Of a DNA stretch of 64,000 nt, positions 7,943 through 60,942 are shown one piece after another (within the stretch, counting starts at the first letter, position 1; each line of letters begins with the position of its first letter). The position numbers and the translations under genes were made by a program. Under the pieces are notes generated by a model, which saw only the letters and a program-made list of their open reading frames with translations, had not been told where the DNA came from and did not search any database. Origin of the DNA: an uncultured Planctomycetia bacterium (lineage in GTDB: Bacteria; Omnitrophota; Gorgyraeia; VGKH01; JBHPFN01); assembly GCA_964406665.1 (NCBI GenBank), contig CAYOSQ010000003.1, positions 186,558-250,557 of the forward strand. Direction: 5' to 3'.

Positions 7943-8374
7943 ATGTTAGATATTGAACAAATTAAAACTATATTGCCTCACCGTTATCCCTTTCTCTTAA
8001 TTGACCGCGTAGTTGATTTTAGCGAAGGCCAGCAACTTACCGCGATTAAAAACGTAACAGCCAACGAACAGTTTTTTCAAGGGCATTTTCCCGATGAAAA
8101 AGTAATGCCAGGAGTATTAATAGTTGAGGCAATGGCCCAGGCAGGTGCTGTATTTTTTTATCTTGAAAAAAAACTTCAAGATAAGAAAAGTGTAGTTTAT
8201 TACTTAGGATCCGTTGATGCTAAATTTTTAAAACCTGTCTTTCCCGGAGATCAGCTAAAGATAGTTATAAAGCCAAAGAAACTACTTTCTAAGGCTGGTT
8301 TTTTTGCTGCCGAGGCCTTTGTTAAAGACGTCAGAGTAGCTAAGTCTGAAATTGGCTTTGGCGTTCAATATTAA
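7943..8374 (+). CDS. fabZ: 3-hydroxyacyl-ACP dehydratase
   Basis: HRYPFLLIDRV ... GHFPDEKVMPGVL hotdog motifs. Confidence 0.9.
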   Translation: MLDIEQIKTILPHRYPFLLIDRVVDFSEGQQLTAIKNVTANEQFFQGHFPDEKVMPGVLIVEAMAQAGAVFFYLEKKLQDKKSVVYYLGSVDAKFLKPVFPGDQLKIVIKPKKLLSKAGFFAAEAFVKDVRVAKSEIGFGVQY

Positions 8375-8557: not shown

Positions 8558-11500
8558 ATGATTATTTTTATTGCTGTTTCAGGAGTTGTCGGCTTAGGGA
8601 TAGTTGCATATGTCTTAACTATGCCCCAGAAGCCGAAAAAAAAGATAAAGCGACAATTGCCGCAGTCGCAGGTTTCTGAAGACCAAAGGATTGTCGGTTT
8701 AGAAAATAAAATTAGCAGCCTGCAGCAAGAACTGGAAAAGGCTGGTTTTGAAAATGCCAGAGCAAAAAAAGAAGCAGAAGACGCTAAGCAAAAAGAAGCT
8801 GAATTAGAGAAAGAACTTGCCAGGCGAAAAGAGTGGGTAGAGAAGGGTCAGACAGATGTAGAAGCTGCGAAGGAAAGATTGCCTGAATTAGAGGCAACTG
8901 TAAAAGAGAAAGAAAAAAGGCTTGAGCAGGAGTTTTCTAAGAATGTTTTACAGGGTAAAGAGCTGCGTCACACCCAAGAAGAGCTTGAAGCTTCCCAGAA
9001 TGAAAACAAGAAAAAAGAAGACGAAATTACAAAACTTAAAAGAGAAATAGAAGGAAAGCATAATGAAATCAAAGGCAACATTGAAGAAATTAGATCTCAG
9101 CGTAATGCAGTAGATGAGTTAAAGAAGAAACAGGAGCAAAGCGAGTGGATTTCTAAAGATGAATATAATAAACTTAAAAAACGTTACGAAGAATTGCAAC
9201 GTCAAATTTTTACGGCCAAAAGGCAGATCGAATTAAAAGAAGAAAAAATCAATGAAGTTGATCTTGAGAGGATGAAGTATAAGAGTCGACTGTTCAGCTT
9301 AGAACGAGAGACTGGAAAAGTTTCTCAAGAGCAACAGGAGCAGGTTCAAGAGGAAGAGCAGAAGCAGCAAGAGCCTAAGGAAGCTGTAGCTGAAGCTGAA
9401 GAAAAACCACCTGCTGGTCAATCAGTTGAAGAAAAGCCAGCTGGAGAAAAAACCGCTGAAGAAGCAAAGGTTGAGGAAAAGTCTCAGGTAGAAGAAGCAA
9501 AACCGACCGAAGCAAAGCCGGCCGGAGAAAAAACCGCTGAAGAAAAACCAGCTGATGAGAAACCCGCCGAAGAAACCAAGCCAGCAGAAGATGAAAAGCT
9601 ATCTGCCGATCAATCAGCTGAAGAAAAACCAGCTGAAGAGGTACAGGCTGACGAAAAGCCTCAAGTTGAAGAGGTAAAGTCTGCGGAAGAAACTCAGCCA
9701 GAAGAGAAGGTTGAGGAAGCCCCGCCTGCACCTATAAAGAAGGCATCTGATGAAGAGATAGCTGAAATAAATAAAAAATTATCCCAGGTAAGAAATATCG
9801 GAATTATGGCCCATATTGATGCCGGTAAGACAACTTTGACTGAAAGAATATTATTTTACACCGGGATTACTCATAAGATTGGCGAGGTTCATGACGGTGA
9901 AGCCAAGATGGATTGGATGAAGCAAGAGCAGGAACGCGGTATCACAATTACCTCAGCTGCTACAACATGCTATTGGAAAGATTCCCGGATAAATTTGATC
10001 GATACTCCCGGACACGTTGATTTTACTGTTGAAGTTGAGCGCAGCCTGCGTGTTTTAGACGGAGCTGTAGCAGTATTTTGTGCAGTCGGAGGAGTGGAAG
10101 CCCAGTCAGAAACAGTCTGGAGACAATCGGAAAAATATATTGTTCCTAAACTAGCATTCATAAATAAAATGGATAGAATGGGAGCAGATTTTTACAAGGT
10201 ATATAAAGATATAGAGGAAAGATTACAGGCAAATCTTGTTCCTCTGCAGATTCCCATCGGTGCAGAAGATAAATTCCGCGGCATGATTGATTTGCTTGAG
10301 ATGAAGGCAATTATTTTTGATGATGATTCTCAGGGTAAAGAATTCAAGATTGAAGAAATCCCCGAAGATCTTAAGCAGAAGGCAGATGAATATCGTCATA
10401 TTTTAGTTGAGAAGGCCTGTGAGTGTGATGATGTTTTAATGAAGAAGCATCTTGAAACAAAGGATGATATTTCTAAAGAGGAGCTTATTGCTGCAATACG
10501 TAAAGGCACGGTTGCCACAAAAGTTATCCCGCTATTGTGTGGAACAGCACTTAAGAATAAGGGCGTTCAGCAAGTTCTTGACGCTGTGATTAATTTCTTG
10601 CCGTCTCCAGCAAATCTTCCACCGGTTGAAGGAACTGACCCAGATGATGCTGAAAAAAAGATTATGAGAAAACCGGATGCCGGCGAAGCTTTTTCTGCAT
10701 TAGCCTTTAAAGTTCAGTCTGACCCGCATATCGGAAAGCTCGTTTATGTAAGAGTTTATTCAGGAATACTATCTTCAGGTACATATATTTACAATGTCAC
10801 CAAAGGCAAAAAAGAACGCGTAGGAAGAATAGTGCGTATGCATGCAAATGAGAGAAGTAACTGTGATGAAATTCATGTTGGAGAGATCGCAGCTGTTGTT
10901 GGTTTAAACTATACAGCCACCGGGGATACTCTTTGCGATGCAGATGGTCAGGTTATTCTTGAATCAATCGAGTTTCCAGAGCCGGTTGTATCATCTTGTA
11001 TTACTCCGGTAAGCCGGAAAGATTCTGATAAATTAAGCAAGGCTTTGATTAAATTGGCTGAGGAAGATCCAACGTTTACTGTTAAGACAGATCGAGATAC
11101 TAAAGAGACTATTTTGTCCGGGATGGGTGAGTTACACTTAGAAATTATTGCAGATAGACTTAAAACCGAATTTAAGGTAGAGGCAGAAATAAGCAGGCCC
11201 GAAGTTGCCTACAGAGAAACTGTTACAGTTGAAGTTACTGAAGAATATAAACACGTTAAGCAGTCAGGTGGTAGAGGTCAATATGCTCATACTGTTATGG
11301 AGATTTCTCCTGCAGAATCAGGTGCTGGGTTAGTATTTAAGGATAGCATAAAAGGTGGAGTTATTCCTAGTGGCTATATTCCTTCTTGTGAAAAAGGAGT
11401 CTGCGCTATTATGGAAAGAGGTATTTTAGCCGGATATCCTGTTGTTGATATTAATATTAATTTAATCGATGGTTCACATCATGATGTTGACTCATCGGAT

Positions 11501-11866
11501 ATTGCATTTAAGATTTGTGCTGGAGAGTGTTTCCGTGGAGGGTTTAAGAAAGCTACTCCTGTTTTGCTTGAGCCGTTCATGAAGTTAGAAGCATTAGTTC
11601 CGGAAGAATACGTAAGCAGTATCGTAGGATATATCTGCTCTAAAAGAGGAAAGATTATGAACATGGACGCTAAAGGAAATCAGAAGATAATTCATGCTGA
11701 AGCTCCTTTGGCTGAGATGTTTGGATATGCTGCATCATTTCGTTCTTTAAGTAGTGGCCGGGCAACTTGCTCTATGGAGTTTGCCAGGTATTCTCAGGTT
11801 CCTGCAGAAATTGCCAATAAGGTAATAGAAGAAAGACAAAAAAAGAAGGAAGAAAAGTCAGAATAA
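8558..11866 (+). CDS. fusA: Elongation factor G with a ~400-aa N-terminal extension (TM helix, coiled coil, acidic EKPA-rich linker)
   Basis: One uninterrupted ORF. Residues 1-21 are hydrophobic, ~40-300 are heptad-like K/E-rich, and ~300-400 are a low-complexity [12 protein letters not shown] linker. A complete EF-G follows ([28 protein letters not shown], through the C-terminus). No in-frame ATG or RBS lies at the canonical EF-G start. Confidence 0.75.
9400..9730 (+). repeat. In-frame low-complexity repeats encoding the EKPA-rich linker
   Basis: ggagaaaaaaccgctgaagaa occurs at 9443 and 9524, an 81-bp period, inside purine-rich gaa/aaa/cca codon tracts. Confidence 0.5.
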
Positions 11867-11954
11867 AAGCGCTTCCTTTTTACTGTTTCCCTGCCTTGAA
11901 AAATCCCGTTATTGTGTTATATTTGTATAGGATATAAAAAATAAAAAGCGTTTT

Positions 11955-12045
11955 GACGATAATGGCAAACCTGGAGTAATCCAGGGGCGCAAAGCTATAG
12001 GGCCCCGAATATTTTCGGGGTAGCCAGACCGCCGAAACAGAACGC
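11955..12045 (+). promoter_or_regulatory. Candidate c-di-GMP-I (GEMM) riboswitch
   Basis: GGCAAACC, a GNRA-capped hairpin (tggaGTAAtcca), GGGCGCAAAGC, and a P2 hairpin (GGGCCCCgaatattttCGGGGtaGCC) follow the order and sequence of the Vc2-type GEMM aptamer. It sits in the 5' leader of a secreted-protein gene. Confidence 0.55.
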
Positions 12046-12118
12046 CTTTTTATTTGTATTTACATTCAAGCTAAAAACCCCACCAGCCACGGAAGGGGAT
12101 CAAAATAGAAGGTGTGAG

Positions 12119-13615
12119 ATGAAGAGAGTAATGTTCATAGTTGTTTTAATGCTGCTGGTTTCTCAAGCATTTGTAACTGCAGGAGAAATTCGCGAGGTTA
12201 CTGTTGGTGCGATAAGCTATCTTAGCTTAGAATACCCTGGTAGTTTTGCTGACCGCATTACTCTTCTACAAGAGAAGATTGATAGTGCGTTGACTAATTC
12301 TGAAGGATTTAATCTAGATTTGATCTTTGAGCCAGAGTATACGTTAGTACGCAGTCATTATTCTTCGAGTGATCCTTCTATTGTTGAGATTATTGAAAAT
12401 GGACCAGGAGATTATAGTGTTTCTTCTATTGGCACATTAGAAAGTGATCTTGTGGTAGATCATATTAATACTTGGTTGATAGAGCGTGCTCAAGAGCACC
12501 ACGTTAATTTCTTTACTAATGTTCATGAAAGAGTAGAGTATGAGCCTGGACAATATGCTCATGGTATAACTGGAATAATAATTAATCATCTGGGTAATAT
12601 TGCTGGGATTAAGCGCAAGATAGAGTTTCATCCTACAGAACAAATGCAGCAGATTGTCGGACCCACAATCAATAGTTTTACGCTTTTGAATCAAGAGGGG
12701 AAGTCTTTTGTTGTGTTGCCATTTATTTGTGCAGACCTCTGGACAACCGAGACACTTAATTGGTATGCGCAGATGCTTCATGATAATAATGCTAAGCCTG
12801 CAGATATTGTAATACATTCAGTAGCAATGGGTGATTGGTTGTATCATCAATTGTTTTTCGATATTCAAGATGGAACATTTGATCCGGATAATCCTCCAGT
12901 GGATATGTATGATTGGTTTTGGAATGAAACAGTAGAGCCAACTTTAATACAACACTATATGCAACAGGAAAAATTAATAAAGTCGATAAACAGTTATTAC
13001 TTCGCAACTGATCGGGTAGGTAATGATGAATTTGGTTCAAACACCGGAGCGTTCGAATTAATTTCTTTTCCTTTGGGACCTAATCCATTTTCTTTAGAAG
13101 ACTATTTATTTACAGATGATTATCTTATTGCCAAAGTGGATATATATTATCCTTCTGGCGGTGGAGGATGTTTCTTATCTGGTACGCCGATTCTTATGGC
13201 TGACGGAACTAAGAAATCAATTGAGAAGATAAAGATAGGAGATAGGGTCTTGGCTTTTGATGAGGAGTCGGGAGATTTAAAAGAAGATGTTGTAAAAGAG
13301 TTCTTTGTGCACACTACGCATGATTATCTTTTAATCAATAATTATTTAAGAGTCACTAAGAATCATCCTGTATTTTCAAACGGAGAGTGGGTTGAGATTG
13401 GAATCTTAAAAGTAGGAGATACCTTAACAGGTTCACAAGGCAAACCTATAAAGATATCATCAATTAGAGAAATTAATCATCCGGATATCGATATCCCGAT
13501 ATATAACTTAGAAGTCAATCCGTATCATACATATATTGCTGGTGGAATTATAGCACATAATAAACCACCCAAAAAGAAAGTGGCTGATTCTTTGGCAGAT
13601 CCTCCAGAAGAATAA
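12119..13615 (+). CDS. Secreted protein with a putative CN-hydrolase-like N-domain and a C-terminal Hint (bacterial intein-like) autoprocessing domain
   Basis: It starts with a signal peptide. The C-terminal ~140 aa begin GGGG-CFLSGTPILMADG and end IIAHN, the Hint/intein N- and C-splice blocks. The N-domain carries E, K and C in the nitrilase-superfamily order (FEPEY, KRKIEFH, ICADLW), a weak assignment. Confidence 0.7.
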   Translation: MKRVMFIVVLMLLVSQAFVTAGEIREVTVGAISYLSLEYPGSFADRITLLQEKIDSALTNSEGFNLDLIFEPEYTLVRSHYSSSDPSIVEIIENGPGDYSVSSIGTLESDLVVDHINTWLIERAQEHHVNFFTNVHERVEYEPGQYAHGITGIIINHLGNIAGIKRKIEFHPTEQMQQIVGPTINSFTLLNQEGKSFVVLPFICADLWTTETLNWYAQMLHDNNAKPADIVIHSVAMGDWLYHQLFFDIQDGTFDPDNPPVDMYDWFWNETVEPTLIQHYMQQEKLIKSINSYYFATDRVGNDEFGSNTGAFELISFPLGPNPFSLEDYLFTDDYLIAKVDIYYPSGGGGCFLSGTPILMADGTKKSIEKIKIGDRVLAFDEESGDLKEDVVKEFFVHTTHDYLLINNYLRVTKNHPVFSNGEWVEIGILKVGDTLTGSQGKPIKISSIREINHPDIDIPIYNLEVNPYHTYIAGGIIAHNKPPKKKVADSLADPPEE

Positions 13616-18392: not shown

Positions 18393-19277
18393 ATGAGAGA
18401 ACTAATTGAAGATTTTATGAATTACCTTTCGGTTGAGCGCGGACTGGCAAAGAACACGCTGGAGTCCTACAAAAGGGATCTGAAAAAGTACACCAAATAC
18501 TTAAAAAGAAAAAATATCACAGATCCTAATAATGTTACCCGTTTGGAGGTAAATAACTTTATGCTTTTCCAGAAGGATAAAGGGCTGTCGATGAGCTCTA
18601 TCAGTAGAAGCCTTGCTGCTGTTAAGGTGTTTCACAAATTCTTAGCCAGAGAAGGTTTTGCTAAAGAGGATAAAACTAGCCTTATCGATTCGCCAAAGCT
18701 TTGGAAGAAAATACCTGAGGTGCTTTCTCGTGACGAAGTAGAATTAATCATAAAAGCAGTTTATCCTAGAGACACTTTGACAATGCGCGATAAAGCTATT
18801 TTAGAGTTGATGTATGCATCCGGCATGCGCGTTTCTGAAGTAGTGGGAATAAAATTGAATGATTTGAATTTGGATATTGGTTTTGTACGTTGTATCGGAA
18901 AGGGTTCCAAGGAGAGAATTATCCCGGTAGGCAAAAGCGCAATTTTAGCCATTACCAGGTATTTAGAGAAGTCTCGAGGCAAGTTAAGCAAGCAACCCAA
19001 TAGCTTTGTTTTTTTAAACCGCTCAGGAAATAGAATCAGCCGTCAGAGCGTTTGGAAAATAATCAAGAAATATGCAAAGATGGCTAAAATAAGAAAAGAA
19101 ATAAAACCACATACGCTAAGGCATTCTTTTGCAACTCATCTGCTTGAAAGGGGAGCGGATTTGCGTTCGGTTCAAGAGATGTTAGGTCATTCTAATATTT
19201 CTACAACTCAGATATATACGCATGTAAATAGAGATAGATTAAAAGAAATACATGAGAAATTTCATCCCAGGCCATAA
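18393..19277 (+). CDS. xerD: Site-specific tyrosine recombinase XerC/XerD family
   Basis: ERGLAKNTLESYKRDL N-domain and C-terminal RHSFATHLL...Y catalytic residues. Confidence 0.8.
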   Translation: MRELIEDFMNYLSVERGLAKNTLESYKRDLKKYTKYLKRKNITDPNNVTRLEVNNFMLFQKDKGLSMSSISRSLAAVKVFHKFLAREGFAKEDKTSLIDSPKLWKKIPEVLSRDEVELIIKAVYPRDTLTMRDKAILELMYASGMRVSEVVGIKLNDLNLDIGFVRCIGKGSKERIIPVGKSAILAITRYLEKSRGKLSKQPNSFVFLNRSGNRISRQSVWKIIKKYAKMAKIRKEIKPHTLRHSFATHLLERGADLRSVQEMLGHSNISTTQIYTHVNRDRLKEIHEKFHPRP

Positions 19278-46725: not shown

Positions 46726-47943
46726 ATGTTAACAGCATTGGTTGTTGTCGTTGTTGTAATTAATATCGTGATATTAATTATATTGCTCACGCGTAATTCG
46801 GATACGAATCTTATTAAGTTTGAAGGCAGCATCAGAGATGAAGTGTCAAAAAATCGCGAAGAAATGTCTAAAACACTAAAAGACTTCAGCGATTCATCTC
46901 TAAAGCAGTTTTTAGGTTTAACGCAAATAAACGAGCAGAAGCTTGAGAATGTGCGTAAGACAATTGAAGAAAGGCTTAAGTCTTTACAGGATGACAATTC
47001 TCAGAAGCTCGAAAAGATGAGAGAAACAGTCGATGAAAAATTACACAATACTCTAGAGAAGCGATTGGGTGAGTCGTTTAAATTGGTCAGCGATCGACTT
47101 GAATCGGTTCAACAGGGCCTTGGAGAAATGCAGGCATTGGCAACAGGGGTAGGCGATCTTAAAAAAGTATTAAGCAATGTTAAAACAAGAGGAACATTGG
47201 GTGAGATTCAGCTAGAAACATTATTGGATCAAATACTGACTCCGGATCAGTATGCGAAAAACGTCGCTACCAAGAGTGGAAGTCGGGAAAATGTTGAGTT
47301 TGCCATAAAGTTACCAGGCAAAGAGGATAAGATTCTCTGGTTGCCAATAGATGCAAAGTTTCCCAAAGAGGATTACGAGCGCTTAGTAGATGCTCAAGAA
47401 CAGGCCAATCCCGATCTTGTAGAAGAATTAGGAAAGGCACTTGAGCAACGCATTAAGTCTGAGGCAAAAGATATCCAAAACAAATATATCGATCCACCAA
47501 ACACAACCGATTTTGGGATTTTGTTTCTAGCAACCGAAGGGTTGTATGCTGAGGCACTCCGAAGGCCAGGCCTATTTGAATCATTACAGAGAGAACACAG
47601 AGTTATACTCACCGGACCGACAACAATAGCAGCGTTATTGAATAGTTTGCAGATGGGATTTAGAACTCTTGCGATAGAGAAGCGCGCAAGTGAGGTCTGG
47701 AACTTATTGGGAGCGATTAAGACGGAATTCGCTAAGTTTGGAGATCTTCTAGTAAAAACACACAAGCAATTAGCAGCTGCCAGCAATACAATAGAAGGTG
47801 CAACAAGGAAAACAAGAACGATTGAAAGAAAATTAAGAGATGTTCAGGAGCTTCCAGTTAAGGAGTCAGCTAAATTATTAGGCAAAGTTGAAGATTTCGA
47901 TATGGAAATTGATACAGAAAATAATTCAGAAGAGCAAGAGTGA
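46726..47943 (+). CDS. rmuC: DNA recombination protein RmuC
   Basis: N-terminal TM, coiled coil, and a C-terminal RmuC nuclease-like domain (TRGTLGEIQLETLL...WLPIDAKFP). Confidence 0.85.
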   Translation: MLTALVVVVVVINIVILIILLTRNSDTNLIKFEGSIRDEVSKNREEMSKTLKDFSDSSLKQFLGLTQINEQKLENVRKTIEERLKSLQDDNSQKLEKMRETVDEKLHNTLEKRLGESFKLVSDRLESVQQGLGEMQALATGVGDLKKVLSNVKTRGTLGEIQLETLLDQILTPDQYAKNVATKSGSRENVEFAIKLPGKEDKILWLPIDAKFPKEDYERLVDAQEQANPDLVEELGKALEQRIKSEAKDIQNKYIDPPNTTDFGILFLATEGLYAEALRRPGLFESLQREHRVILTGPTTIAALLNSLQMGFRTLAIEKRASEVWNLLGAIKTEFAKFGDLLVKTHKQLAAASNTIEGATRKTRTIERKLRDVQELPVKESAKLLGKVEDFDMEIDTENNSEEQE

Positions 47944-48067
47944 GGATTAAAGAAGATTGTCATTTTTGTACTTATAGAGATACGGTTAGGGATATTGTGT
48001 AAAATATGAAGCACATGACAAATGTTTTATAGTTGAAAATAAGACAATATAAAGGTATGCTAATGAG

Positions 48068-48237
48068 GTAGCTAGATGGCTTTTAGCTTAGAACATCACG
48101 GTGTTTCACCGTGGACGCGATAAAGGCTAGACTACCCTTTTCGGATCTCATAGTCGCGTATTTGTGTGGTACCCAAACACGCGAATATGACATCCGGGCA
48201 CTTTGAAAGATTAGTAAGGAAAAAGCCATCTAGCTAC
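48068..48237 (+). ncRNA. Retron msr-msd non-coding RNA flanked by a1/a2 inverted repeats
   Basis: A 17-bp perfect inverted repeat, gtagctagatggctttt (48068-48084) and aaaagccatctagctac (48221-48237), brackets a structured region. That region has an msr-type hairpin (cacggtg-tttc-caccgtg) and a long imperfect msd stem, and it lies immediately upstream of a retron-type RT on the same strand. Confidence 0.7.
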
Positions 48238-48257
48238 ACTCGTATTAAGGGATTTTT

Positions 48258-49766
48258 ATGTCATTAGACAAACTAAAGAAAATAGAAGAATTGATTTCTT
48301 CTAAGGAACATAAAGATAGATTAAAATCTATATCCTTGATAAAAGAATTGTCAGTTGATGAAGTAAAGACATTGTTAATTAAGTATGCAACTTTTTGGGA
48401 TAAACAATTCAAAAGAGAATTTTCTAAAGAGGCACTTGATCAGTTCGGAAAAGAAATTATCGAGTCCATAGTTAATTTAGTAAAGAACGAAAATCTTCCC
48501 ATAAAATTCACGATAAATCTTCTGAGTAAATTCGATGATCCTTTCGTTATTGATTTCATTGCAACGTACCTTTCGCATTTTCGAACAGATATTAGGCTTG
48601 AATCTCAGAGGATCATCTTGGAATACAGTAGCGAATATGCAGTTTTTGTGCAATGGTGCAATGATTTAAAGGATTTCAAATTATTGCAAAATCTACTGGA
48701 TAAAATTCCAGTTGAAAATATCGCTAAATATATAGATCGTTTAAACGATTGGGACCGTAATGCTTTTTTAGGTAAGCCTGCCACTAAAGAATATTTAGCG
48801 CATAGAAAACTTACCAATCTATTTGCAGTCATCGATGATTCTACTGAAGGTAGGCTTTTGGTGAGAAAAACAGAATCGTCAAAAATATATTTAGAGAGTA
48901 TTTCAGAGCGACTTCAAGCACCAAAAGGACTTATAGGATGGGTGGTTAGAAATTGGGATGCTGTTGATTCTCTCTATGCGACCTTTACAATTCCAAAAAA
49001 AAGTGGAGGCCAGCGCTCGATATCTTCTCCACCAGATAAACTTAAGTATGTGCAGGAGCTAATTTATAAAAATGTGTTGTCTAAAGCTTTGCTCCATCCA
49101 TGTTGCCACGGCTTTATATCGGGACGATCCATAATAACCAACGCCGAATATCATACAAATAAGGATGTGGTAGTCAATGTGGATATAAAAGATTTCTTTC
49201 CATCCATATCAGCTTCGAGGGTTTATGGAGTATTTCAATCTCTCGGATTTAACAAGCATGAGGCAAGACTGCTAACACGTATTGCAACACGGAATAATTG
49301 TTTACCACAAGGAGCCCCAACAAGTCCTATAATAGCAAACATAACATGTAAAAGACTTGATAGTAGGCTTTCTGGGTTAGTTAAAAAAATGGATGGTAAA
49401 TATAGTCGATACGCAGATGATCTTACCTTTAGTGGCGATGAAAAAATATTAAAAGTGATTCCTCGTATTTATAAAATTATAGGCGCCGAAGGATTTCTTG
49501 TCGCAATAGAAAAAACTAGAGTTACACGAAAAGGAAATCGTCAGGAAGTAACAGGCTTAACGGTAAACAAGAAAATCTCGATACAACGAAAAAGGCGCAA
49601 GAATCTAAGGGCTATTATTCATCATTTCAAAACAAGTAAAAGTATTCATTGGAACGGGAAAGATTTATCTGTTCAAAGCCTAAAAGGGCACATTGCCTTT
49701 TTAAAGTCAGTACATCCTGAGACCGCGAGTAGCTATAATGATGTAATTAAGAAAAGTAAAAAGTGA
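48258..49766 (+). CDS. Retron-type reverse transcriptase with a ~240-aa N-terminal extension of unknown function
   Basis: RT motifs are present: SGGQRSISSPP, HGFISGRS, VNVDIKDFFPSI, LPQGAPTSPIIAN, YSRYADDLTF. The retron-specific NRQEVTGLTVN (VTG) motif is also present. The RT domain begins near residue 245, preceded by an alpha-helical-looking domain. Confidence 0.8.
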   Translation: MSLDKLKKIEELISSKEHKDRLKSISLIKELSVDEVKTLLIKYATFWDKQFKREFSKEALDQFGKEIIESIVNLVKNENLPIKFTINLLSKFDDPFVIDFIATYLSHFRTDIRLESQRIILEYSSEYAVFVQWCNDLKDFKLLQNLLDKIPVENIAKYIDRLNDWDRNAFLGKPATKEYLAHRKLTNLFAVIDDSTEGRLLVRKTESSKIYLESISERLQAPKGLIGWVVRNWDAVDSLYATFTIPKKSGGQRSISSPPDKLKYVQELIYKNVLSKALLHPCCHGFISGRSIITNAEYHTNKDVVVNVDIKDFFPSISASRVYGVFQSLGFNKHEARLLTRIATRNNCLPQGAPTSPIIANITCKRLDSRLSGLVKKMDGKYSRYADDLTFSGDEKILKVIPRIYKIIGAEGFLVAIEKTRVTRKGNRQEVTGLTVNKKISIQRKRRKNLRAIIHHFKTSKSIHWNGKDLSVQSLKGHIAFLKSVHPETASSYNDVIKKSKK

Positions 49767-53563: not shown

Positions 53564-53980
53564 ATGAAAAGGTTCGAAATCATAGAACACACCGCTGATA
53601 TTGGCATAAAGATATTCGGCAGTGATTTAAAAGAACTGTTCTGCAATGCTGCTGCAGGGATGTTCGATATTATAGCCGATTCAAAAGAAGTCAACCGAAA
53701 GAAGCATATTAACGTTGAGGTTAAAGCTGATAATATTGAAGAGCTTTTGGTAAACTGGTTAACTGAGCTCTTGTTCCATTTCAATGCTAATTTTATTATT
53801 CTTAAAGAATTTTCTATAACTGAAATATCACAAAATAATATTAAAGCTGTAGTCTCAGGTGAAAAAATCGATAAAAACAAGCATAGTATAAATACAGAGA
53901 TAAAGGCAGTAACTTATCATGAGCTTAAAGTAGAAAAAAAGGATTTTGGCTGGAACGTACAGGTTATCTTCGACGTGTAG
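53564..53980 (+). CDS. Archease
   Basis: MKRFEIIEHTADIGIKIFG... archease N-terminal signature, upstream of rtcB. Confidence 0.85.
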   Translation: MKRFEIIEHTADIGIKIFGSDLKELFCNAAAGMFDIIADSKEVNRKKHINVEVKADNIEELLVNWLTELLFHFNANFIILKEFSITEISQNNIKAVVSGEKIDKNKHSINTEIKAVTYHELKVEKKDFGWNVQVIFDV

Positions 53981-53990
53981 GAGGAATTTT

Positions 53991-54203
53991 ATGGCAAGTT
54001 GGGTTACGGTTCACACAACAAATGATGAAGCTGAGGTTAATTTAGTCAAAGGAATATTAGAGGAATATGGAATAAATTGTATTATCGAAAGCTCAAAACA
54101 TAGCCCTTGGATAACAGCACCATTGTTTAATCAGTTTGAGTTAAAAGTTTTGAAAGAGAAACTTGAAGAAGCTAAAGAAATAATTAAAACCGCAGGAGAT
54201 TAA
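53991..54203 (+). CDS. Small conserved protein (DUF2007-like)
   Basis: WVTVHTTNDEAEVNLVKGILEEYGI motif. Its start follows a ggagg RBS after the archease stop. Confidence 0.5.
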   Translation: MASWVTVHTTNDEAEVNLVKGILEEYGINCIIESSKHSPWITAPLFNQFELKVLKEKLEEAKEIIKTAGD

Positions 54204-55661
54204 ATGGCAGAGGTTTGGCAGGGTACGCTAAACAAGATTGATGATTTTCGATATGAGATCCCTAGGTCTTATAAGCAAGGAATGCGTGTCAGGGGTTTGA
54301 TATATGCGGATGATAAGTTGATAAAAAACATCCGTCATGATAAGGCAGCTGAACAAGTTGCAAATGTAGCTTTTTTACCCGGGATTGTCGGTAGCTCTTT
54401 AGCAATGCCGGATATTCACTGGGGCTATGGTTTTTCGATTGGTGGAGTTGCTGCAACTGACCCTGAAAACGGTGGTGTAGTTTCTCCGGCGGGTGTGGGT
54501 TATGATATTAATTGCGGCGTGCGGCTGCTTAGAACTAATTTAGAGTATGATGATATAAAAGATAAAATTGAAGATCTGACCTATGCGTTGTTTAACAATA
54601 TTCCTTCAGGCGTAGGTTCAAAGGGAGATATTCGCTTATCTTATAATGATGAAAAGAAGATTTTAGTAAATGGTGCTAAATGGGCTGTTGAAAATGGATA
54701 TGGTGCTGCAGAGGATTTAGAGGCTACAGAAGAATTTGGCGCAATAAAGGGCGCAGATCCTTTAAGTGTATCGGAGAGAGCGATTAAAAGAGGCAAGGCT
54801 CAGTCTGGAACACTTGGTTCAGGAAATCATTTTTTAGAAGTACAAGTAATCGATAAAATATTTGATGAAGAAAGTGCAGAAGTTTTTAATCTTCGGGTTG
54901 GTCAAATAACAGCAATGATTCATTCTGGATCCCGTGGTTTAGGTTATCAGGTTTGTGATGATTTTGTAAAAAGTATGATAAAATGTATTAGTAAATACAA
55001 AATCAATGTTCCTGACAGGCAACTTGTCGGTGCACCGGTTAATTCGCCGGAGGCAGAAGCTTATATTTCTGCGATGAGATGTGCGGCTAATTATGCTTGG
55101 GCAAACCGGCAGTGTTTGATGCATTTAACAAGAGAAGTATTCCAGAAGATGTTCGGCAGAAGCTGGCGCGATATGGATATGCATCTGATTTATGATGTTG
55201 CTCATAATATCGCAAAATTTGAAAAACACAAAGTAAAAGGTAAAGAAAAGGTTTTATGTGTTCATAGAAAAGGCGCGACGCGTGCTTTCCCACCTGGACA
55301 TCCGGAGTTACCGCAAAAGTATCAAAAGACTGGTCAGCCGGTAATTATTCCGGGGGATATGGGGAGGAATTCTTATCTTCTTACAGGGACAGAAAAGGCC
55401 GCAGAAACTTTTTACTCTACTTGTCATGGTGCTGGAAGATTAAAGTCGCGCACTGCTGCAACTAAAGAGTTTGATGCGCAATGGCTTGTTAATGATTTAA
55501 AATCTAAGGGAATCTTTGTAAAGGCCTCAGGACGTGGTACTATATCAGAAGAAGCTCCGGGAGCCTACAAGGATGTAAACGATGTGGTTGATGTTGTACA
55601 TAATGCGGGAATTTCCCACAAGGTTTGCCGTATGCGGCCTTTGGGAGTAATAAAGGGGTGA
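54204..55661 (+). CDS. rtcB: RNA-splicing ligase RtcB
   Basis: 485 aa with conserved RtcB blocks (GYDINCGVR, HSGSRGLG, CHGAGR). Confidence 0.95.
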   Translation: MAEVWQGTLNKIDDFRYEIPRSYKQGMRVRGLIYADDKLIKNIRHDKAAEQVANVAFLPGIVGSSLAMPDIHWGYGFSIGGVAATDPENGGVVSPAGVGYDINCGVRLLRTNLEYDDIKDKIEDLTYALFNNIPSGVGSKGDIRLSYNDEKKILVNGAKWAVENGYGAAEDLEATEEFGAIKGADPLSVSERAIKRGKAQSGTLGSGNHFLEVQVIDKIFDEESAEVFNLRVGQITAMIHSGSRGLGYQVCDDFVKSMIKCISKYKINVPDRQLVGAPVNSPEAEAYISAMRCAANYAWANRQCLMHLTREVFQKMFGRSWRDMDMHLIYDVAHNIAKFEKHKVKGKEKVLCVHRKGATRAFPPGHPELPQKYQKTGQPVIIPGDMGRNSYLLTGTEKAAETFYSTCHGAGRLKSRTAATKEFDAQWLVNDLKSKGIFVKASGRGTISEEAPGAYKDVNDVVDVVHNAGISHKVCRMRPLGVIKG

Positions 55662-55666
55662 TAGAG

Positions 55667-56185
55667 ATGAAGAAGTTAATTATCATTTTGATTATTGGAT
55701 TATTGTCGTTTGCATCGAATGTTTTCGCACTTGAACCAAATGAACCAGGCGAGCTAGAAGCTTACATAGTTGTCAGTGATACACCTGATTTTATCGATGA
55801 GTGGATGTCAACTCCGTTTGAAAAAGACATACATATGAAACGCATCAAAGAAGTAAGATACGAACAGATGTTTCATATTGCTGTATTGGTAACTGGTTTT
55901 GTTGTTAATAGAAATAGCAGGACAGATATAACTGCTGATTTTATATTAGAGAATCCCAACAGAACTATTCAGTTTAATGAAAAAGATATGTTTACGCATG
56001 GAAGGAAAATGCACAACTTAACAGGGTTTCTTATGCTTGATCCTGCAATAGATTTAGCATTTGAAGAAACCGATAAGCCAGGTAAATATACTATAAAAGT
56101 AAAGGTTACAGATAGAGAATTAGAAAAAACAGTGAAAGAAAAATATATTGTAGTTTTAACTGAAGAACCAAACATTGAAGAATAG
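55667..56185 (+). CDS. Secreted hypothetical protein
   Basis: Signal peptide (MKKLIIILIIGLLSFASNVFA) with an aagggg RBS. I trimmed the start from the ORF-track value. Confidence 0.55.
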   Translation: MKKLIIILIIGLLSFASNVFALEPNEPGELEAYIVVSDTPDFIDEWMSTPFEKDIHMKRIKEVRYEQMFHIAVLVTGFVVNRNSRTDITADFILENPNRTIQFNEKDMFTHGRKMHNLTGFLMLDPAIDLAFEETDKPGKYTIKVKVTDRELEKTVKEKYIVVLTEEPNIEE

Positions 56186-56197
56186 AAAAGGTGAGAA

Positions 56198-57466
56198 ATG
56201 TTAGATCTTAAATTTATTCGCGAGAATACTGATTTAGTAAAAAAATCAATAAAAGACAGAGCAGCTAAAGTTGATTTAGATGAGATTGTCAAACTTGATG
56301 CAGCTAGGCGCAAGGTATTAACTTCACTTGACGGATTACGCTCTGAAAAAAATAAAGCCAATGATGAAATTTCTGTTTTGTTGAAAGAAAAAAAGGATCC
56401 CAAAAAGAAAATTGCAGCGATGAAAAAAATCTCTACTGAAATTGGAAAGTTAGAGAAAGAATTAAAAAAACTTGAACCAAAACTATATGATCTTATTTTA
56501 ACCGTACCCAACATTCCTCACGAGTCGCTTCCCGTGGGAGCAGTTGAAAAAAACAAAGTTATTCGTAGCTGGAGGGAGCCGAAGAAGCCTGATTTTTCTG
56601 TAAAAACACATGATGAACTTGCTGAGAAACTTGACATCATTGATTTTAAACGAGCTACAAAAATTACGGGCTCAAATTTTATTTTGTATAAAGGTTGGGG
56701 TGCACGTTTAGAAAGGGCATTATTAAATTTTATGTTGGATTTTCATACTGAGAAACACGGTTATACCGAGGTGTTTCCACCTTTTTTAGTAAATCGAGCC
56801 TCTATGACAGGTACCGGGCAGCTTCCCAAGTTGGAAGAAGATATGTATAGGCTTAAAGATGATGATTTGTTTTTGATTCCTACTGCAGAGGTTCCTGTCA
56901 CGAATATCTATAGAGATGATATATTAAATGAAGATGATTTACCGATTAATTATACGGCATATACAGCCTGTTTTAGGAGAGAAGCAGGTTCTTATGGTAA
57001 GGATACCAAGGGTCTTATGCGCGTGCATCAGTTTAATAAAGTTGAATTGGTTAAATTTGTGAAGCCCGAAGACTCTTTTAATGAATTAGAAAAACTTTTA
57101 GGAAATGCTGAAGATGTCTTGCAAGCTCTTGGTTTGCCTTATAGAGTTGTTATGCTGGCAACCGAAGATCTCAGCTTTGCAGCAAGCAAATGTTATGACA
57201 TTGAGGCTTATGCATCTGGAATTGATAAGTGGCTTGAAGTTTCAAGCTGTAGTAATTTCTGTGATTTTCAGGCAAGACGGGCAAATATTAGATTCAGAAA
57301 CAGCACGACTAAAAAACTTGCCTTTATCCATACGTTAAATGGTTCTGGAGTCGCCTTAGCTCGCACCATGATTGCAATTTTAGAAAATTATCAACAAAAA
57401 GACGGTACTGTAATAGTTCCCGATGTATTAAGACGGTATATGGACGGGAAGGAAATCATTGAGTGA
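56198..57466 (+). CDS. serS: Seryl-tRNA synthetase
   Basis: N-terminal coiled-coil arm plus class II aaRS core; 422 aa. Confidence 0.95.
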
Positions 57467-58064
57467 TCATATAAAAAATTTAGTTATTTTTATTTGTACG
57501 TATTTTTTACTACCTGTATCAGTAGGAATTTCGGTAAGTTTTTATTCTCAGCTGGGTGCGGCAGGAATTGATGTAAGAAATATTTTTTTCGCAGGTTTAT
57601 TTAGCTTCCTAGTTCTGTATCTGTTTGTTTGGGAGCCGCATTTTTTACACGATAAAGGACAAAGTTTTATCGGCAGGTTATGTAGTTTTTCTCCTTCGTT
57701 TGCTAATAGCGCATCTTTTTTTGTCTCAGCATACACTGCATTGTTTTTAATTATTTTTGTGATTTTCTCTTTAATCATAAGAACACATAAATATGATAGT
57801 GTTTTTATTTTTATTATAGGATTGAGCATTGGATTATATCTTGTTTTTACAGCGAAAAACTTAAAGAGCCAGCTAGAAGATTTTGTGAGTTCTAGATATT
57901 TCTTTACATTGGAAGTTGCTTATATGATTAACTTAACTATTGTTGCTTTTGTATTTAATTACCTTTTTAAAAGCTTTTCTTTTGTTAAGTTTTTTCAACT
58001 TTCTTTGAAAATTGCTGGCGATATTTATTATGTAGTCTTTGGGCAATTATTTTTTGTTTCATAA
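57459..58064 (+). CDS. Polytopic membrane protein, function unknown
   Basis: Multiple hydrophobic helices. Confidence 0.5.
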
Positions 58065-58136
58065 ATATTGAACTCAGATTGCACAAAGTTTTTTCCAATG
58101 GTATAATAAAACTCACTACGTTTATTTAGTTTTTTT

Positions 58137-58223
58137 GGAGGCGTGGCTGAGTGGTTGAAAGCGGCAGTCTTGAAAACTGTTGTGGGCGTAAGTCCACCAG
58201 GGGTTCGAATCCTCTCGCCTCCG
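58137..58223 (+). tRNA. tRNA-Ser (anticodon UGA)
   Basis: Class II tRNA with a long variable arm, anticodon loop ctTGAaa, Ser-type D-loop (gagtggttgaa). Confidence 0.8.
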
Positions 58224-58252
58224 AAAGAAATAGATAGAGTTAAAATCTATCT

Positions 58253-58338
58253 GGAGAGGTGCGAGAGTGGTTGAATCGGCCGGTCTCGAAAATCGGTAGG
58301 TCATTTTGGCCTCCTGGGTTCAAATCCCAGCCTCTCCG
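58253..58338 (+). tRNA. tRNA-Ser (anticodon CGA)
   Basis: Class II tRNA, anticodon loop ctCGAaa, long variable arm. Confidence 0.75.
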
Positions 58339-58390
58339 GTAAGCTATGTGAGAAAATTAAATATTATAATTAAAACATATTAATAGGGAG

Positions 58391-58672
58391 GTGGTCATAG
58401 TGTTTATTGATGGAACAATTATTCTAGTTTTAAAGATAGTAATGCGCATGTTGATAGCATTAGCTTTTGCCTGCAGCCTTTTTTTATTGGTTACTCCCGA
58501 AGGTTATTTGAAACTTAGTAGGATTCTAGAGAAAGAATATGGCCTTAGAAAAAAGATTATTCCTTCCATAGAAAAAGAAGAAGGAGTTATTGATAATTTC
58601 TTATTACGCTTTAGAATGGTTATCGGCGCCATTTTCCTTTTTGTTTCAATAGTCCTACTGTCCCAGTTTTAA
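58391..58672 (+). CDS. Small membrane protein
   Basis: Hydrophobic. GTG start at 58391, or at 58400 with better RBS spacing. Confidence 0.4.
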   Translation: MVIVFIDGTIILVLKIVMRMLIALAFACSLFLLVTPEGYLKLSRILEKEYGLRKKIIPSIEKEEGVIDNFLLRFRMVIGAIFLFVSIVLLSQF

Positions 58673-58705
58673 TTTTAACAGAATTACTAGTTTTAAATTC
58701 TTTTG

Positions 58706-58793
58706 GGAGAGGTGCTGGAGCTGGTCTAACAGGCATGTTTGGAGAACATGTGAACCCGTAAGGGTTCCGGGAGTTCGAATCTCCCCCTCTCCG
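58706..58793 (+). tRNA. tRNA-Ser (anticodon GGA)
   Basis: Class II tRNA, anticodon stem catgt/acatg, loop ttGGAga, long variable arm. Confidence 0.7.
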
Positions 58794-58852
58794 CTGACTA
58801 CCTAAAAAAAGATAAAAAACTTAATACTAACTCAAGGAGAAAAGAGGATTTA

Positions 58853-60217
58853 ATGGATAACAGAGAGCTGCTCAAGATTGAATTGGAAGTGGTGGATAAA
58901 CTAAGAGGAAAAATCAGCTTGCTTCAGAAAGATGATGAAAAAGAACGGATAGTTCTTGAGGTTCTCTCTGAAATATGTGGATTATTGGAAAAAGAAACAT
59001 TGCTGGGTGAAGTAAAAACTTTAAAGACCGAAGAAGAACGTAAACATTTTACGAAGAACTTCTTTTCTTATGGAGTTATTGAAGAGCTATTGTGTGATCC
59101 TAATGTAGAAGATATCATTATTAATGCTTTGAACCCTATTTTTGTTCATCACTCTGAAAAAGGTTTAATAAAAACGCACTGCCAGTTTAACTCTGAAAGA
59201 GAACTTGATTTATTTCTTCACAAATTGATAGTTTTTTCAGGAAGAAAAGAATTAAAAAGAGTTAATAATCTTGAGCTGCCTAATATTCAAGGGCGTGTGA
59301 ATATAGTGCTTTCTCCTTTGGGACCTCAGATTACAATAACCAAGGCAAAATATGAGCCACTTAGCATTATTGATTTAATCGAAAAAGAATCAATGACTTA
59401 TGATCTCGCTGCACAGCTTTGGTTGTATCTGGAGGGTCTTCAGGTAAGGCCAGCCAACGTTATTATTTCTGGTGGGCCTGGTTCTGGGAAAACAACTTTA
59501 CTTAATGCTTTATTTAGTTTTGTTCCCTCCAGTGAAAGAATGGTAATCATAGAGGATACGCTGGAATTAAATACTCAGTTTGAAGAAAGCTGTTCCCGTT
59601 TAGAGAGTGATGAATATATGGATCTAGCCGAACTTGTAAAAAATAGCTTAAGGATGCGTCCTGATAGAATAATTATTGGTGAGGTTCGAGGTGAGGAAGC
59701 AAAGGATTTAATGACCGCAGTTAACGTAGGAAAATATTGCATGGGTACAATACATGCAAGCACAGCTAGGGAAGCAATTATCCGTATGCAGAACCAGCCG
59801 ATGAATGTTCCGGAGATTTTAGTTGGCCTTGTTGATGCTTTTATTATAATGAAGAAATTTTCTTCAAAAGATAAAGTTTATCGTGTTGTTGAAGAGCTTG
59901 TAGAAACTGGTGGAATTGAACAAAAAACTGTTTTACTTTCACAAGTGTGGAAATACAATTATGAGAGAAACAAGATAGAGAAGGTTTCTCCTAGTACAAT
60001 TTATCGAGATAGGCTCTCAAAAGCATCAGGGATGTTACCTAAAGAAATTATCGAAGAAACTCATATTCGCTCTAGAGTTTTAAAGACTTTAAAGGAAAAA
60101 AATCTAACTACTATGAAAGAAGTTACAACTTTCTGCAGAGCTTATAGCGAAGATTGCGATTCTGCGTTAGCTGGTTTGAATCTTCGCAAGAAAGATCTTG
60201 TTGTATTGGACGATTAA
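58853..60217 (+). CDS. Type II/IV secretion-system ATPase (CpaF/TadA/VirB11 family)
   Basis: Walker A GGPGSGKTT, plus RPDRIIIGEVRGEEA and GTIHAS blocks. Confidence 0.85.
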   Translation: MDNRELLKIELEVVDKLRGKISLLQKDDEKERIVLEVLSEICGLLEKETLLGEVKTLKTEEERKHFTKNFFSYGVIEELLCDPNVEDIIINALNPIFVHHSEKGLIKTHCQFNSERELDLFLHKLIVFSGRKELKRVNNLELPNIQGRVNIVLSPLGPQITITKAKYEPLSIIDLIEKESMTYDLAAQLWLYLEGLQVRPANVIISGGPGSGKTTLLNALFSFVPSSERMVIIEDTLELNTQFEESCSRLESDEYMDLAELVKNSLRMRPDRIIIGEVRGEEAKDLMTAVNVGKYCMGTIHASTAREAIIRMQNQPMNVPEILVGLVDAFIIMKKFSSKDKVYRVVEELVETGGIEQKTVLLSQVWKYNYERNKIEKVSPSTIYRDRLSKASGMLPKEIIEETHIRSRVLKTLKEKNLTTMKEVTTFCRAYSEDCDSALAGLNLRKKDLVVLDD

Positions 60218-60247
60218 TTTTCTGAAAATTAAAATTTAAAAAAGTTA

Positions 60248-60373
60248 GCGCCTGCCCCAAAAAAATGGGAATGGCGCAAAAGAAATGATGCGCCTGCCCC
60301 AAAAAAATGGGACTGGCGCAAAAGAAATGATGCGCCTGCCCAAAAAAAATGGGACTGGCGCAAAAGAAATGAT
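60248..60373 (+). repeat. 3 x 42-bp direct tandem repeats abutting tRNA-Arg
   Basis: Units at 60248-60289, 60290-60331 and 60332-60373: GCGCCTGCCCCAAAAAAATGGGA(A/C)TGGCGCAAAAGAAATGAT. Each begins with the tRNA 5' 7-mer gcgcctg and contains a GCGCC...GGCGC hairpin. Confidence 0.85.
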
Positions 60374-60447
60374 GCGCCTGTGGCCCAATTGGATAGGGCA
60401 ACTGCCTACGGAGCAGTAGGTTGGAGGTTCGAATCCTCCCAGGCGCA
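60374..60447 (+). tRNA. tRNA-Arg (anticodon ACG)
   Basis: Cloverleaf with anticodon stem actgc/gcagt, loop ctACGga, T-arm ggaggTTCGAAtcctcc. Confidence 0.8.
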
Positions 60448-60465
60448 CTTAAGAAGCAGGAGAAG

Positions 60466-60942
60466 ATGCAAAGAGAAAAAGAATATTTTATGCAGGAGGC
60501 ACTTAAAGAAGCAGTTGTAGCATTTGAAAATGATGAAGTTCCCGTTGGAGCAGTTGTTGAATTCAAAGGAAAAATTATCGCAAAAGCACATAATCAAGTT
60601 GAGCTTCTAAAAGACCCCACCGCACATGCAGAAATGATAGCTATTACTCAAGCTGCTAATTTTTTAAAATGCAAATGGTTGAACGACTGTTCGGTCTATG
60701 TTACAATTGAGCCTTGTAGCATGTGTGCCGGGGCGTTAATTTTAGCCAGGATTAAAAATTTGTATTATGGTGGAAATGATCCGAAAGCCGGGGCATGTGG
60801 ATCAGTGACTTCTGTTGCAAATGAAAAGCAGTTAAACCATCATATTAATATTGAAAAAGGTATTTTATCAGCAGAGAGTGGTTTGTTACTTAAGGAATTT
60901 TTCAAGAAAAAACGTAAACTACAATCGGTAAAGAATAATTAA
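60466..60942 (+). CDS. tadA: tRNA-specific adenosine deaminase
   Basis: HAEMIAI ... PCSMCAGAL zinc-deaminase motifs. The start moves to the ATG at 60466 (aggag RBS) because the ORF-track start lies inside the tRNA. Confidence 0.9.
   Translation: MQREKEYFMQEALKEAVVAFENDEVPVGAVVEFKGKIIAKAHNQVELLKDPTAHAEMIAITQAANFLKCKWLNDCSVYVTIEPCSMCAGALILARIKNLYYGGNDPKAGACGSVTSVANEKQLNHHINIEKGILSAESGLLLKEFFKKKRKLQSVKNN

Follow-up and report, generated by a model that had tools for sequence, protein, structure and literature searches.

The window analysed here is the whole 64,000-nt stretch of contig CAYOSQ010000003.1 (assembly GCA_964406665.1, positions 186,558 to 250,557, forward strand), which comes from an uncultured bacterium of the Omnitrophota. 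Near its end, a tandem array of three short hairpin repeats lies between a gene for a CpaF/TadA-type secretion ATPase (58853..60217, plus strand) and a gene for tRNA-Arg(ACG). The stop codon of the ATPase gene falls 30 nt before the first repeat. The tRNA gene was called on the plus strand at 60374–60448 (or 60447) by ARAGORN and Rfam (tRNA, 70.4 bits). The gene that follows, at 60466..60942 on the same strand, is tadA, which encodes the tRNA adenosine(34) deaminase (NCBIfam TadA equivalog, 151.5 bits, cutoff 150). It starts 18 nt past the tRNA on which its product acts; to our knowledge, tRNA-Arg(ACG) is the only bacterial substrate of TadA.

Tandem Repeats Finder placed the array at 60248–60380, with a period of 42, 3.2 copies, 97% matches, no indels and a score of 252. 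This agreed with the three 42-bp tandem repeats described in an earlier reading of the letters by themselves (below, the sequence-only reading). The consensus of the unit was GCGCCTGCCCCAAAAAAATGGGACTGGCGCAAAAGAAATGAT. Since the array runs to 60380 and the tRNA starts at 60374, the final partial copy consists of nucleotides 1–7 of the tRNA. The heptamer GCGCCTG was present four times across the array and the tRNA start.

Each unit was made up of a 31-nt hairpin followed by an 11-nt spacer, AAAGAAATGAT. The 5' arm of the hairpin, GCGCCTG, was identical to nucleotides 1–7 of tRNA-Arg(ACG) (7/7), as the sequence-only reading had stated. In units 2 and 3 the match reached back to nt -1 (TGCGCCTG). 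The 3' arm together with the next base, CTGGCGC-A, matched the 3' acceptor strand and discriminator of the tRNA, CAGGCGC-A, at seven of eight positions. This second likeness had been missed in that reading, which had raised a tRNA-derived duplication as one possibility, an origin that the present results support and extend. Because of the single difference in the 3' arm, position 6 of the stem is a U.U mismatch. The unit folded as GCGCC.G.CCCC-loop-GGGG.C.GGCGC with an energy of -17.6 kcal/mol (z = -4.5), in line with the hairpins proposed earlier, and the predicted fold of the 243-nt region was three hairpins and a cloverleaf.

All three units lie on the plus strand. The hairpin of unit 1 with its discriminator-like A (GCGCCTGCCCCAAAAAAATGGGAATGGCGCA) occupies 60248..60278. 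It scored 39.6 bits with the covariance model R1 (see below) and carries a variant A at unit position 24, which disrupts pair 7. Its spacer is at 60279..60289. The hairpin of unit 2 (60290..60320, 43.3 bits) is the consensus copy, with its spacer at 60321..60331. The hairpin of unit 3 (60332..60362, 39.8 bits) has a variant A at unit position 11, and its spacer (60363..60373) is at the same time the 5' leader directly before the tRNA. The tRNA gene itself supplies the template of the units, in the form of nucleotides 1–7 and the 3' acceptor strand with the discriminator (CAGGCGCA). A 30-mer of the unit found three matches in the window at one mismatch or less, compared with none in 100 dinucleotide shuffles. 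There was no copy of the unit outside the array in the 64 kb, and none was expected by chance.

Beyond the acceptor strands and the discriminator, the units showed no likeness to tRNA-Arg(ACG). ARAGORN and Rfam found no tRNA-like gene in 60248–60373, and no D, anticodon or T arms were recognisable there. A degraded tRNA retaining its T arm was considered and dismissed: when the unit was right-aligned with the T arm of the tRNA, only the last 6 nt were identical. A mimic of the TadA substrate was likewise rejected, as no UACG anticodon-loop motif is present in the loops of the units. When the region, the entire window and four relatives were searched with Rfam, only tRNAs and two riboswitches came up, with no group I intron and no known leader element.

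The array proved to be authentic. The ATPase next to it has an identical protein sequence on seven further contigs, taken from assemblies of JGI, ENA and Logan. In six of these, independent assemblies of different samples (L004–L009), the array was base-for-base identical, including the two unit-specific single-nucleotide polymorphisms (SNPs), and the contigs were 99.97–100% identical to the window (0–3 SNPs) over 7–11 kb. The seventh, the Logan unitig L010, stops inside the array, which is the one observation in favour of a collapsed or duplicated repeat. The two SNPs are 72 nt apart and are spanned by ordinary reads, which fixes the copy number at three. An assembly artefact, which the sequence-only reading had named as the outcome that would overturn it, was thereby refuted within the reach of short-read data, and we regard its remaining chance as negligible. 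As the contigs represent one population, they exclude the artefact and say nothing on the long-term stability of the copy number. The 147-aa minus-strand open reading frame (ORF) across the array (60123–60566) had no Pfam match. It runs antisense to the tRNA and contains a repeat-encoded peptide three times, so it is spurious, as the sequence-only reading had stated.

Diverged units were recovered at the same place in several relatives. Three were present before tRNA-Arg(ACG) in L021 (82% identity of the ATPase), two in L022 (76%), one in L028 (68%) and one in L014/L015 (58%). In L028, both the unit and the tRNA begin with GCGCCTA. No units were found in L003, L016, L023, L025, L027 and L029–L031, with ATPase identities of 55–69%. 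Among the unit-bearing lineages the foot of the stem was conserved as GCGCCTG[C/T]CCCG ... CGGG[G/A]CTGGCGC-A, and the tip of the hairpin varied from an A7 loop to 13–30 nt. A fixed 12-bp minihelix was considered as the defining trait; it holds in the window, but the stems of the relatives range from 12 to about 20 positions.

The pairing was examined in an alignment (A3) of 10 units, three of which are near-identical. In this alignment 84.6% of the cells paired, compared with 31–43% when the partners were slid. Two-sided changes were present in three pairs (7-66, GC/AU; 8-65, UA/CG; 11, CG/UA). The covariation score was 0.182 against 0.136 +/- 0.016 in shuffles, and was reached by 1 of 500 shuffles. 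The U.U (T.T) mismatch was kept in 13 of 14 units; the exception was that of L014, in which U6 faces an A beside a bulge.

The covariance model R1 was built from the 10 units and searched against 180 kb of the window and the loci. It matched only the known units before tRNA-Arg(ACG) and a second array after recR. The new matches scored 30.3 bits in L021 and less in L004, a contig of the window's own genome that reaches 2.2 kb past the window end (L004 coordinate + 52852 = window coordinate). In L004 the second array has about four hairpin units between recR and the gene for tRNA-Asn(GTT), at 11193–11421, and starts at window-equivalent 64045, about 45 nt past the window end. The tRNA-Asn(GTT) gene follows at 11454–11527 (end at window-equivalent 64379) and is itself followed by a canonical terminator. 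The same array is present in L021 (contig JBHPFN010000017.1) at 9224–9359, where the end of the locus cuts it. It was seen in these two genomes only.

The outer stem of the second array had changed with the tRNA. tRNA-Asn(GTT) starts with TCCCCTG and ends with CGGGGGA-G, and the outer stem of the units before it, (T/A)CCCCTG...CTGGGGA, copies this stem. The best-kept unit of the Asn array in L021 reads TCCCCTG TCCCGAG..CGGGG CTGGGGA-A, and the best-kept unit shared by L021 and L004 reads ACCC(C)TG CCCTGAC-A6-CGTCAGGA CTGGGGA. From the Arg to the Asn array, the outer stem thus went from GCGC/GCGC to (U/A)CCC/GGGA, tracking the downstream tRNA; pair 3-70 is G-C in seven units and C-G in three. 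Both arrays had the core and the U.U mismatch in common, and even the types of loop. Both unit-bearing tRNAs have CCTG at nucleotides 4–7, and the seven window tRNAs without CCTG at this position have no units (Fisher p ~0.03).

Taken together, these results give good support to the view that the array arose by a recent local amplification of the hairpin with its spacer, and that the hairpin belongs to a family of leader stem-loops in related Omnitrophota, located between a protein gene and a downstream tRNA. It is equally well supported that the outer stem in this family copies the acceptor stem of the downstream tRNA (six of seven base pairs and the 3' A), that position 6 is almost always a U.U mismatch, and that the tip is free to vary. 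In the literature on tyrT repeats, on minihelices and RNase P leaders, on tRNAs of Omnitrophota, on t-elements and on REPs at tRNAs, no leader hairpins modelled on the acceptor stem of a downstream tRNA were found, and the family is apparently undescribed.

The array lies in a long run of genes on one strand. The 57 ORFs of 110 aa or more and the eight tRNAs of the window are without exception on the plus strand, and there is no minus-strand gene. The order at the locus is Archease, DUF2007, RtcB, an ORF, SerRS, an ORF, two tRNA-Ser genes, ORF93, tRNA-Ser, the CpaF-type ATPase gene, the array, tRNA-Arg(ACG), tadA, tRNA-Ser(GCT), a DUF2490-like gene, dnaX and recR. The named proteins nearest to the ATPase are from metagenome-assembled genomes of Candidatus Omnitrophota. 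The synteny of ATPase, tRNA-Arg(ACG), tadA and tRNA-Ser(GCT) was kept in the recovered loci that extend far enough, and the part from tRNA-Arg(ACG) to tRNA-Ser(GCT) was found in almost every related locus reaching that far. L023 has an extra ORF between tRNA-Arg and tadA. Upstream of the ATPase gene and the array, the neighbourhood is also centred on tRNA: at 53564–58794, the genes for Archease, DUF2007, the RtcB RNA ligase and SerRS lie together with three tRNA-Ser genes.

Promoters and terminators were compared along the window. The tRNA promoters elsewhere in it read TGGTATAAT or TGATATAAT, and no promoter of this TGnTATAAT-like type was present ahead of the array. A weak sigma-70-like match just before unit 1 (TGGACG-17-TAAAAT, 9/12, 60207..60235, plus strand) is probably non-functional, as the other tRNA promoters of the window read TGnTATAAT. 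In the relatives without units L023, L027 and L029–L031, only 4–25 nt separate the stop codon of the ATPase gene from the tRNA start, so the tRNA there must be co-transcribed with the ATPase gene. Canonical terminators with a hairpin and a T-run occur in the window at 373–395 and 726–743. Downstream of the array, one appears only after the tRNA-Asn gene that follows recR. These features of the sequence suggest that the array sits within a long mRNA/tRNA co-transcript, in the intercistronic leader between the ATPase gene and the tRNA, and that tadA is probably a member of the same transcription unit as tRNA-Arg(ACG). The units were also tested as plus-strand terminators. Their tail, AAAAGAAATGAT, is A-rich and has no U-run, so they are not, and canonical terminators are present elsewhere in the genome. 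The terminator scan flagged none of the three units on either strand.

The spacer gave an indication of how the three copies arose. It matches the leader directly before the tRNA in L028 and L026 (AAGAAATAGAT), and it also resembles the sequence following tRNA-Ser(TGA) at 58225–58236. As the spacer is the tRNA-proximal leader, the repeat unit is a hairpin plus the native leader, with TGCGCCTG at both borders. Slipped-strand mispairing or unequal recombination between the TGCGCCTG of an ancestral hairpin and that of the tRNA start would duplicate exactly the hairpin and the spacer, giving the observed 42-bp period. We consider this the most likely origin of the three copies. The state before the amplification appears to persist in L028, where one unit is followed by the leader and the tRNA. 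The 97% identity of the copies suggested that the amplification was recent relative to the diverged units of L021 and L022.

A motif in this spacer, AAGAAAT(A)GAT, was found at 58225–58236 and at 60279–60289 and its repeats in the window, at 4453–4465 in L028 and at 11443–11453 in L004. It thus stands after tRNA-Ser(TGA), as the spacer of the units, and before tRNA-Arg or tRNA-Asn in relatives. It may be a processing-site or a leader/trailer motif.

Other rearrangements of hairpins and tRNA pieces were seen at this locus in relatives. In L012 (4365–4453) and L026 (4385–4550) there is a pseudo 5' part of tRNA-Arg(ACG) upstream of the intact gene, broken after nucleotide 12 by two GC-rich hairpins. 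Their stems are conserved between the two loci, with a compensatory change from T..A to C..G at the base of hairpin 2. L002 (5428–5550) has a 16-nt copy of the 5' end of tRNA-Arg(ACG), followed by two GC-rich hairpins, upstream of the intact gene. In L032 (2610–3084) 400 bp of non-coding DNA interrupt a tRNA-Arg(ACG) gene at ACGGAG. Within this insert are another tRNA-Arg(ACG), intact but differing in its acceptor stem, and hairpin-rich repeats of 92–97 bp, each ending with ACGGAG. The two tRNA halves, when joined, fold as a cloverleaf, and the left junction is common to L026. These inserts and the units have TCCCGAGCTT in common, as well as loops of the form CTTG..TAA.CGAGG. The combinations of fragment and hairpin in the relatives indicated that the locus is a hot spot for the joint duplication of hairpins and tRNA pieces.

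Hairpins also accompany tRNA genes at further places. In L029 (1651–1770) and L030 (1703–1822), which lack upstream units, GC-rich hairpins (GGAGTCCCGACG..GTCGGGAC) lie between tRNA-Arg(ACG) and tadA, and their stems resemble the L002 hairpins. At 1953–2063 and 8110–8210, downstream of intact tRNA-Ser genes, L003 has a 3' fragment of tRNA-Ser comprising the T arm, the acceptor strand and the encoded CCA; its T loop is interrupted by a double hairpin (TCCCGCC..GGCGGGA, TCCCGC..GCGGGA). In the window, hairpins that share the stems of this double hairpin are present at 810–917, between the terminator of a flavin mononucleotide (FMN) riboswitch and ribBA.

From this analysis, our best guess is that the units are recently amplified hairpins, modelled on the acceptor stem, that arose by slippage and that would cap the upstream mRNA after the cut by RNase P. 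We hold this reading tentatively, at a probability of about 0.42. Of the possibilities raised in the sequence-only reading, a regulatory or processing array would be the most appealing in terms of function. The array would be transcribed together with the upstream ATPase gene and the tRNA. Cleavage by RNase P at the 5' end of the tRNA would leave the acceptor-stem-like hairpins on the 3' end of the ATPase mRNA and, at the second array, on the 3' end of the recR mRNA. There they might act as processing punctuation and as a barrier to 3' exonucleases, and might themselves be recognised by tRNA-processing enzymes. Competition for the 3' acceptor strand of the tRNA in the unprocessed precursor would be a side effect.

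Several observations weigh against such a capping role. The units are dispensable, being absent from several relatives, and two junctions of the same operon (tadA to tRNA-Ser(GCT), and ORF93 to tRNA-Ser(GGA)) have none. A protective hairpin would need neither a copy of the acceptor stem nor a U.U mismatch that is kept. The length of the stem, 12 to about 20 positions, is not fixed at that of a 12-bp acceptor/T-arm minihelix, and no T-loop motif is present. In their patchy distribution and variable copy number the units resemble selfish or neutral repeats. The covariation sample was small (10–14 units, with three near-identical), and any role of the units at the RNA level is putative.

The last resemblance leads to an explanation at the level of DNA, which we regard as rather unlikely. 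The unit would be a selfish or neutral palindrome, of the repetitive extragenic palindromic (REP) or miniature palindromic element type, residing beside tRNAs with a 5' CCTG and having no dedicated function as RNA. It would multiply by microhomology-mediated slippage, and template switching inside the quasi-palindrome would bring its second arm into line. The copy number of 0–3 across syntenic relatives, the association with CCTG, the shared interiors and different outer stems of the Arg and Asn arrays of one genome, and the other rearrangements of tRNA fragments and hairpins (L012, L026, L002, L032) are all consistent with such an element. A conserved mismatch is typical of hairpins bound by proteins as DNA, such as REPs and the ends of IS200/IS605, and was also counted in its favour. 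On the other hand, only two loci were present in 66 kb of the genome, both directly before tRNAs and all in the tRNA orientation. There is no transposase gene among the 57 ORFs of the window, and none for a REP-associated tyrosine transposase (RAYT, Y1 HUH). The idea of a mobile core between duplicated CTG target sites does not hold in L028 or unit 1 of L021, which show CTA...TTG with a compensated pair. When GCGCCTGYCCC-N6-36-GGGRCTGGCGC was scanned against 2.9 million viral contigs in search of a viral or mobile source, the single match was in a high-GC coding region with no tRNA and was taken as chance. Another idea is that the units are scars of attachment sites, which the sequence-only reading had put forward, or of stacked small integrative elements; GCGCCTG would then be the leftover recombination core. 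The direct repeats are indeed identical to a tRNA segment, and the tRNA-Arg(ACG) of L032, split by a 400-bp insert with a replacement tRNA, demonstrates that insertion-type events do occur at the locus. The core is only 7–8 nt, however, and lies at the 5' end of the tRNA, and the copies are 35 bp apart, which is too short. Over more than 40 kb no gene of an integrase or of an element is present; the sole tyrosine recombinase (18393–19277) looks Xer-like, and the neighbours of the array are housekeeping genes. The stem also shows compensatory changes, and the same design is repeated before tRNA-Asn. We therefore set the attachment scars aside as very improbable.

The mimicry itself would be explained by a decoy for the acceptor strand, encoded in the leader, that would brake or regulate maturation of the tRNA, with the copy number tuning the effect. 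The 5' arm of the unit pairs perfectly with the 3' acceptor strand of the tRNA, and the 3' arm can pair with the 5' strand; such strand swapping in the precursor would slow processing by RNase P. Owing to the U.U mismatch, the 5' arm finds a better partner in the tRNA 3' strand than in the 3' arm of its own unit, so the decoy would account for the mismatch in 13 of 14 units as well as for the matching to the cognate tRNA. The native acceptor stem had a probability of 0.99 in the equilibrium ensemble without the leader, which fell to 0.42, 0.09 and 0.04 with one, two and three units. The value was 0.00–0.39 in L021, L022 and L014 and 0.97–0.99 in relatives without units, and shuffled leaders gave averages of 0.6–0.8. 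The centroid fold of the precursor paired unit 1 with the 3' end of the tRNA, as did the minimum-energy fold of the Asn precursor. These calculations are no more than suggestive, since the model ignores tertiary structure of the tRNA and co-transcriptional folding, in which a unit can form its own hairpin before the tRNA has been synthesised. The same competition would be expected from any copy of the 5' strand, there was no effect in L028 (0.85), and there is no known need to throttle tRNA-Arg(ACG) or tRNA-Asn. We consider the decoy improbable. Its wider form, in which tandem decoys that track the cognate tRNA either gate RNase P by strand swapping or are freed by RNase P/RNase Z as minihelix RNAs that titrate an acceptor-stem-binding factor, is hardly more credible. 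The sequence-only reading had also noted that on the minus strand the units look like hairpins with T-rich tails, with no minus-strand gene nearby. The absence of such a gene was borne out for the whole 64 kb, and it counts against intrinsic terminators that would protect the operon against antisense transcripts. Read on the minus strand, unit 1 runs into TAACTTTTTTAAATTTT, and a related unit before tRNA-Asn, N4, was flagged as a minus-strand terminator-like site. The scan flagged none of the three units at tRNA-Arg, though, the tails of units 2 and 3 are ATCATTTC, and the units of the relatives lack T-rich tails. The reading of the units as hairpins with T-rich tails thus proved weak, and terminators of this kind are scarcely believable.

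The capping hairpins, as we read them, were also compared with known systems. Among tandem repeats that were seeded by a tRNA end, the closest textbook example is the 178-bp repeat at E. coli tyrT/tyrV (rtT/RttR RNA, tpr), which is co-transcribed with the tRNA. It too is a tandem array that ends in a partial copy of the end of the adjacent tRNA; in NC_000913 we found a 178 bp x 3.1 array (L034, 705–1263) that overlaps the 3' end of tyrV. That repeat, however, is 3' of the tRNA and seeded by its last ~19 nt, whereas the Omnitrophota array is 5' and its units start with nucleotides 1–7. The units of E. coli are four times longer, are not acceptor-stem hairpins, and have no known counterparts with matching stems ahead of other tRNAs. 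Animal mitochondria also have repeats at tRNA ends, in which slipped-strand duplication gives units with partial tRNA copies and hairpins. Those are organellar, usually in control regions, and do not form a conserved family of acceptor-stem mimics.

The REPs and bacterial interspersed mosaic elements (BIMEs) are likewise short, imperfect, GC-rich palindromes, intercistronic in an AT-richer context, often clustered and with a conserved mismatch. The unit, an imperfect extragenic palindrome of 31 nt with a conserved mismatch, falls within this class (~20–40 nt). REPs stabilise the upstream mRNA against 3' exonucleases. They differ in having hundreds of dispersed copies in alternating orientation and in being associated with RAYT transposase, whereas in the 66 kb of the genome covered here two tRNA-linked arrays were seen, in one orientation, with no RAYT gene among the 57 ORFs of the window and with an outer stem that follows the neighbouring tRNA. 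Attachment repeats at tRNAs of the type of cis-mobilizable (CIME) and integrative and conjugative (ICE) elements likewise are direct repeats that reproduce part of a tRNA gene exactly, and several may stand in tandem. They usually comprise 15–60 bp from the 3' portion of the tRNA and have kilobases of element DNA between them, including an integrase; neither is the case here.

In plant mitochondria, t-elements and acceptor-stem-like stem-loops in polycistronic transcripts have been proposed or shown to direct cleavage by RNase P/RNase Z and thereby to define mRNA ends (Forner et al. 2007, PMC1920247). The Omnitrophota units similarly mimic a tRNA acceptor stem within what is probably a polycistronic transcript, and their pairing is conserved with covariation. 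The T-arm motif GGTTCRANYCC of the t-elements is absent from all Omnitrophota units. The t-elements, in turn, are organellar, do not form tandem arrays and do not reproduce the acceptor stem of the tRNA that comes next.

Three further features of the window are recorded here. A retron-type reverse transcriptase of 502 aa is encoded at 48258–49766 (PADLOC RT_XIII, 326 bits), within the stretch 46726–49766; its N-terminal ~240 aa were unmatched. It has RmuC directly upstream and five ORFs without a Pfam match downstream, and the 315-nt gap ahead of it could hold its non-coding RNA. At 11954–13615, a c-di-GMP-I riboswitch (57 bits) precedes a 498-aa protein with a C-terminal HINT / pretoxin-HINT domain. 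An EF-G-like protein of 1102 aa (8558–11866) has an N-terminal extension of about 400 aa that matched no Pfam family.

The matched mimicry of the acceptor stem at two tRNAs, together with the U.U mismatch, would surprise a tRNA specialist, and it may yet be a by-product of repeat dynamics. In either case, arrays of this type produce spurious ORFs and can break short-read assemblies beside tRNA genes. If the units act only at the level of DNA, they would represent a specific route by which palindromes and the 5' ends of tRNAs seed each other's duplication, which would also account for the tRNA fragments and split tRNA genes at this locus in relatives. Should the family be active as RNA, it would correspond in bacteria to the tRNA-like processing signals known from plant mitochondria, with the added feature of a mimic that is matched to the following tRNA and varies in copy number. 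The structure of the pre-tRNA leader would then add a regulated and evolvable level to the expression of tRNA and mRNA in a phylum without cultured members.

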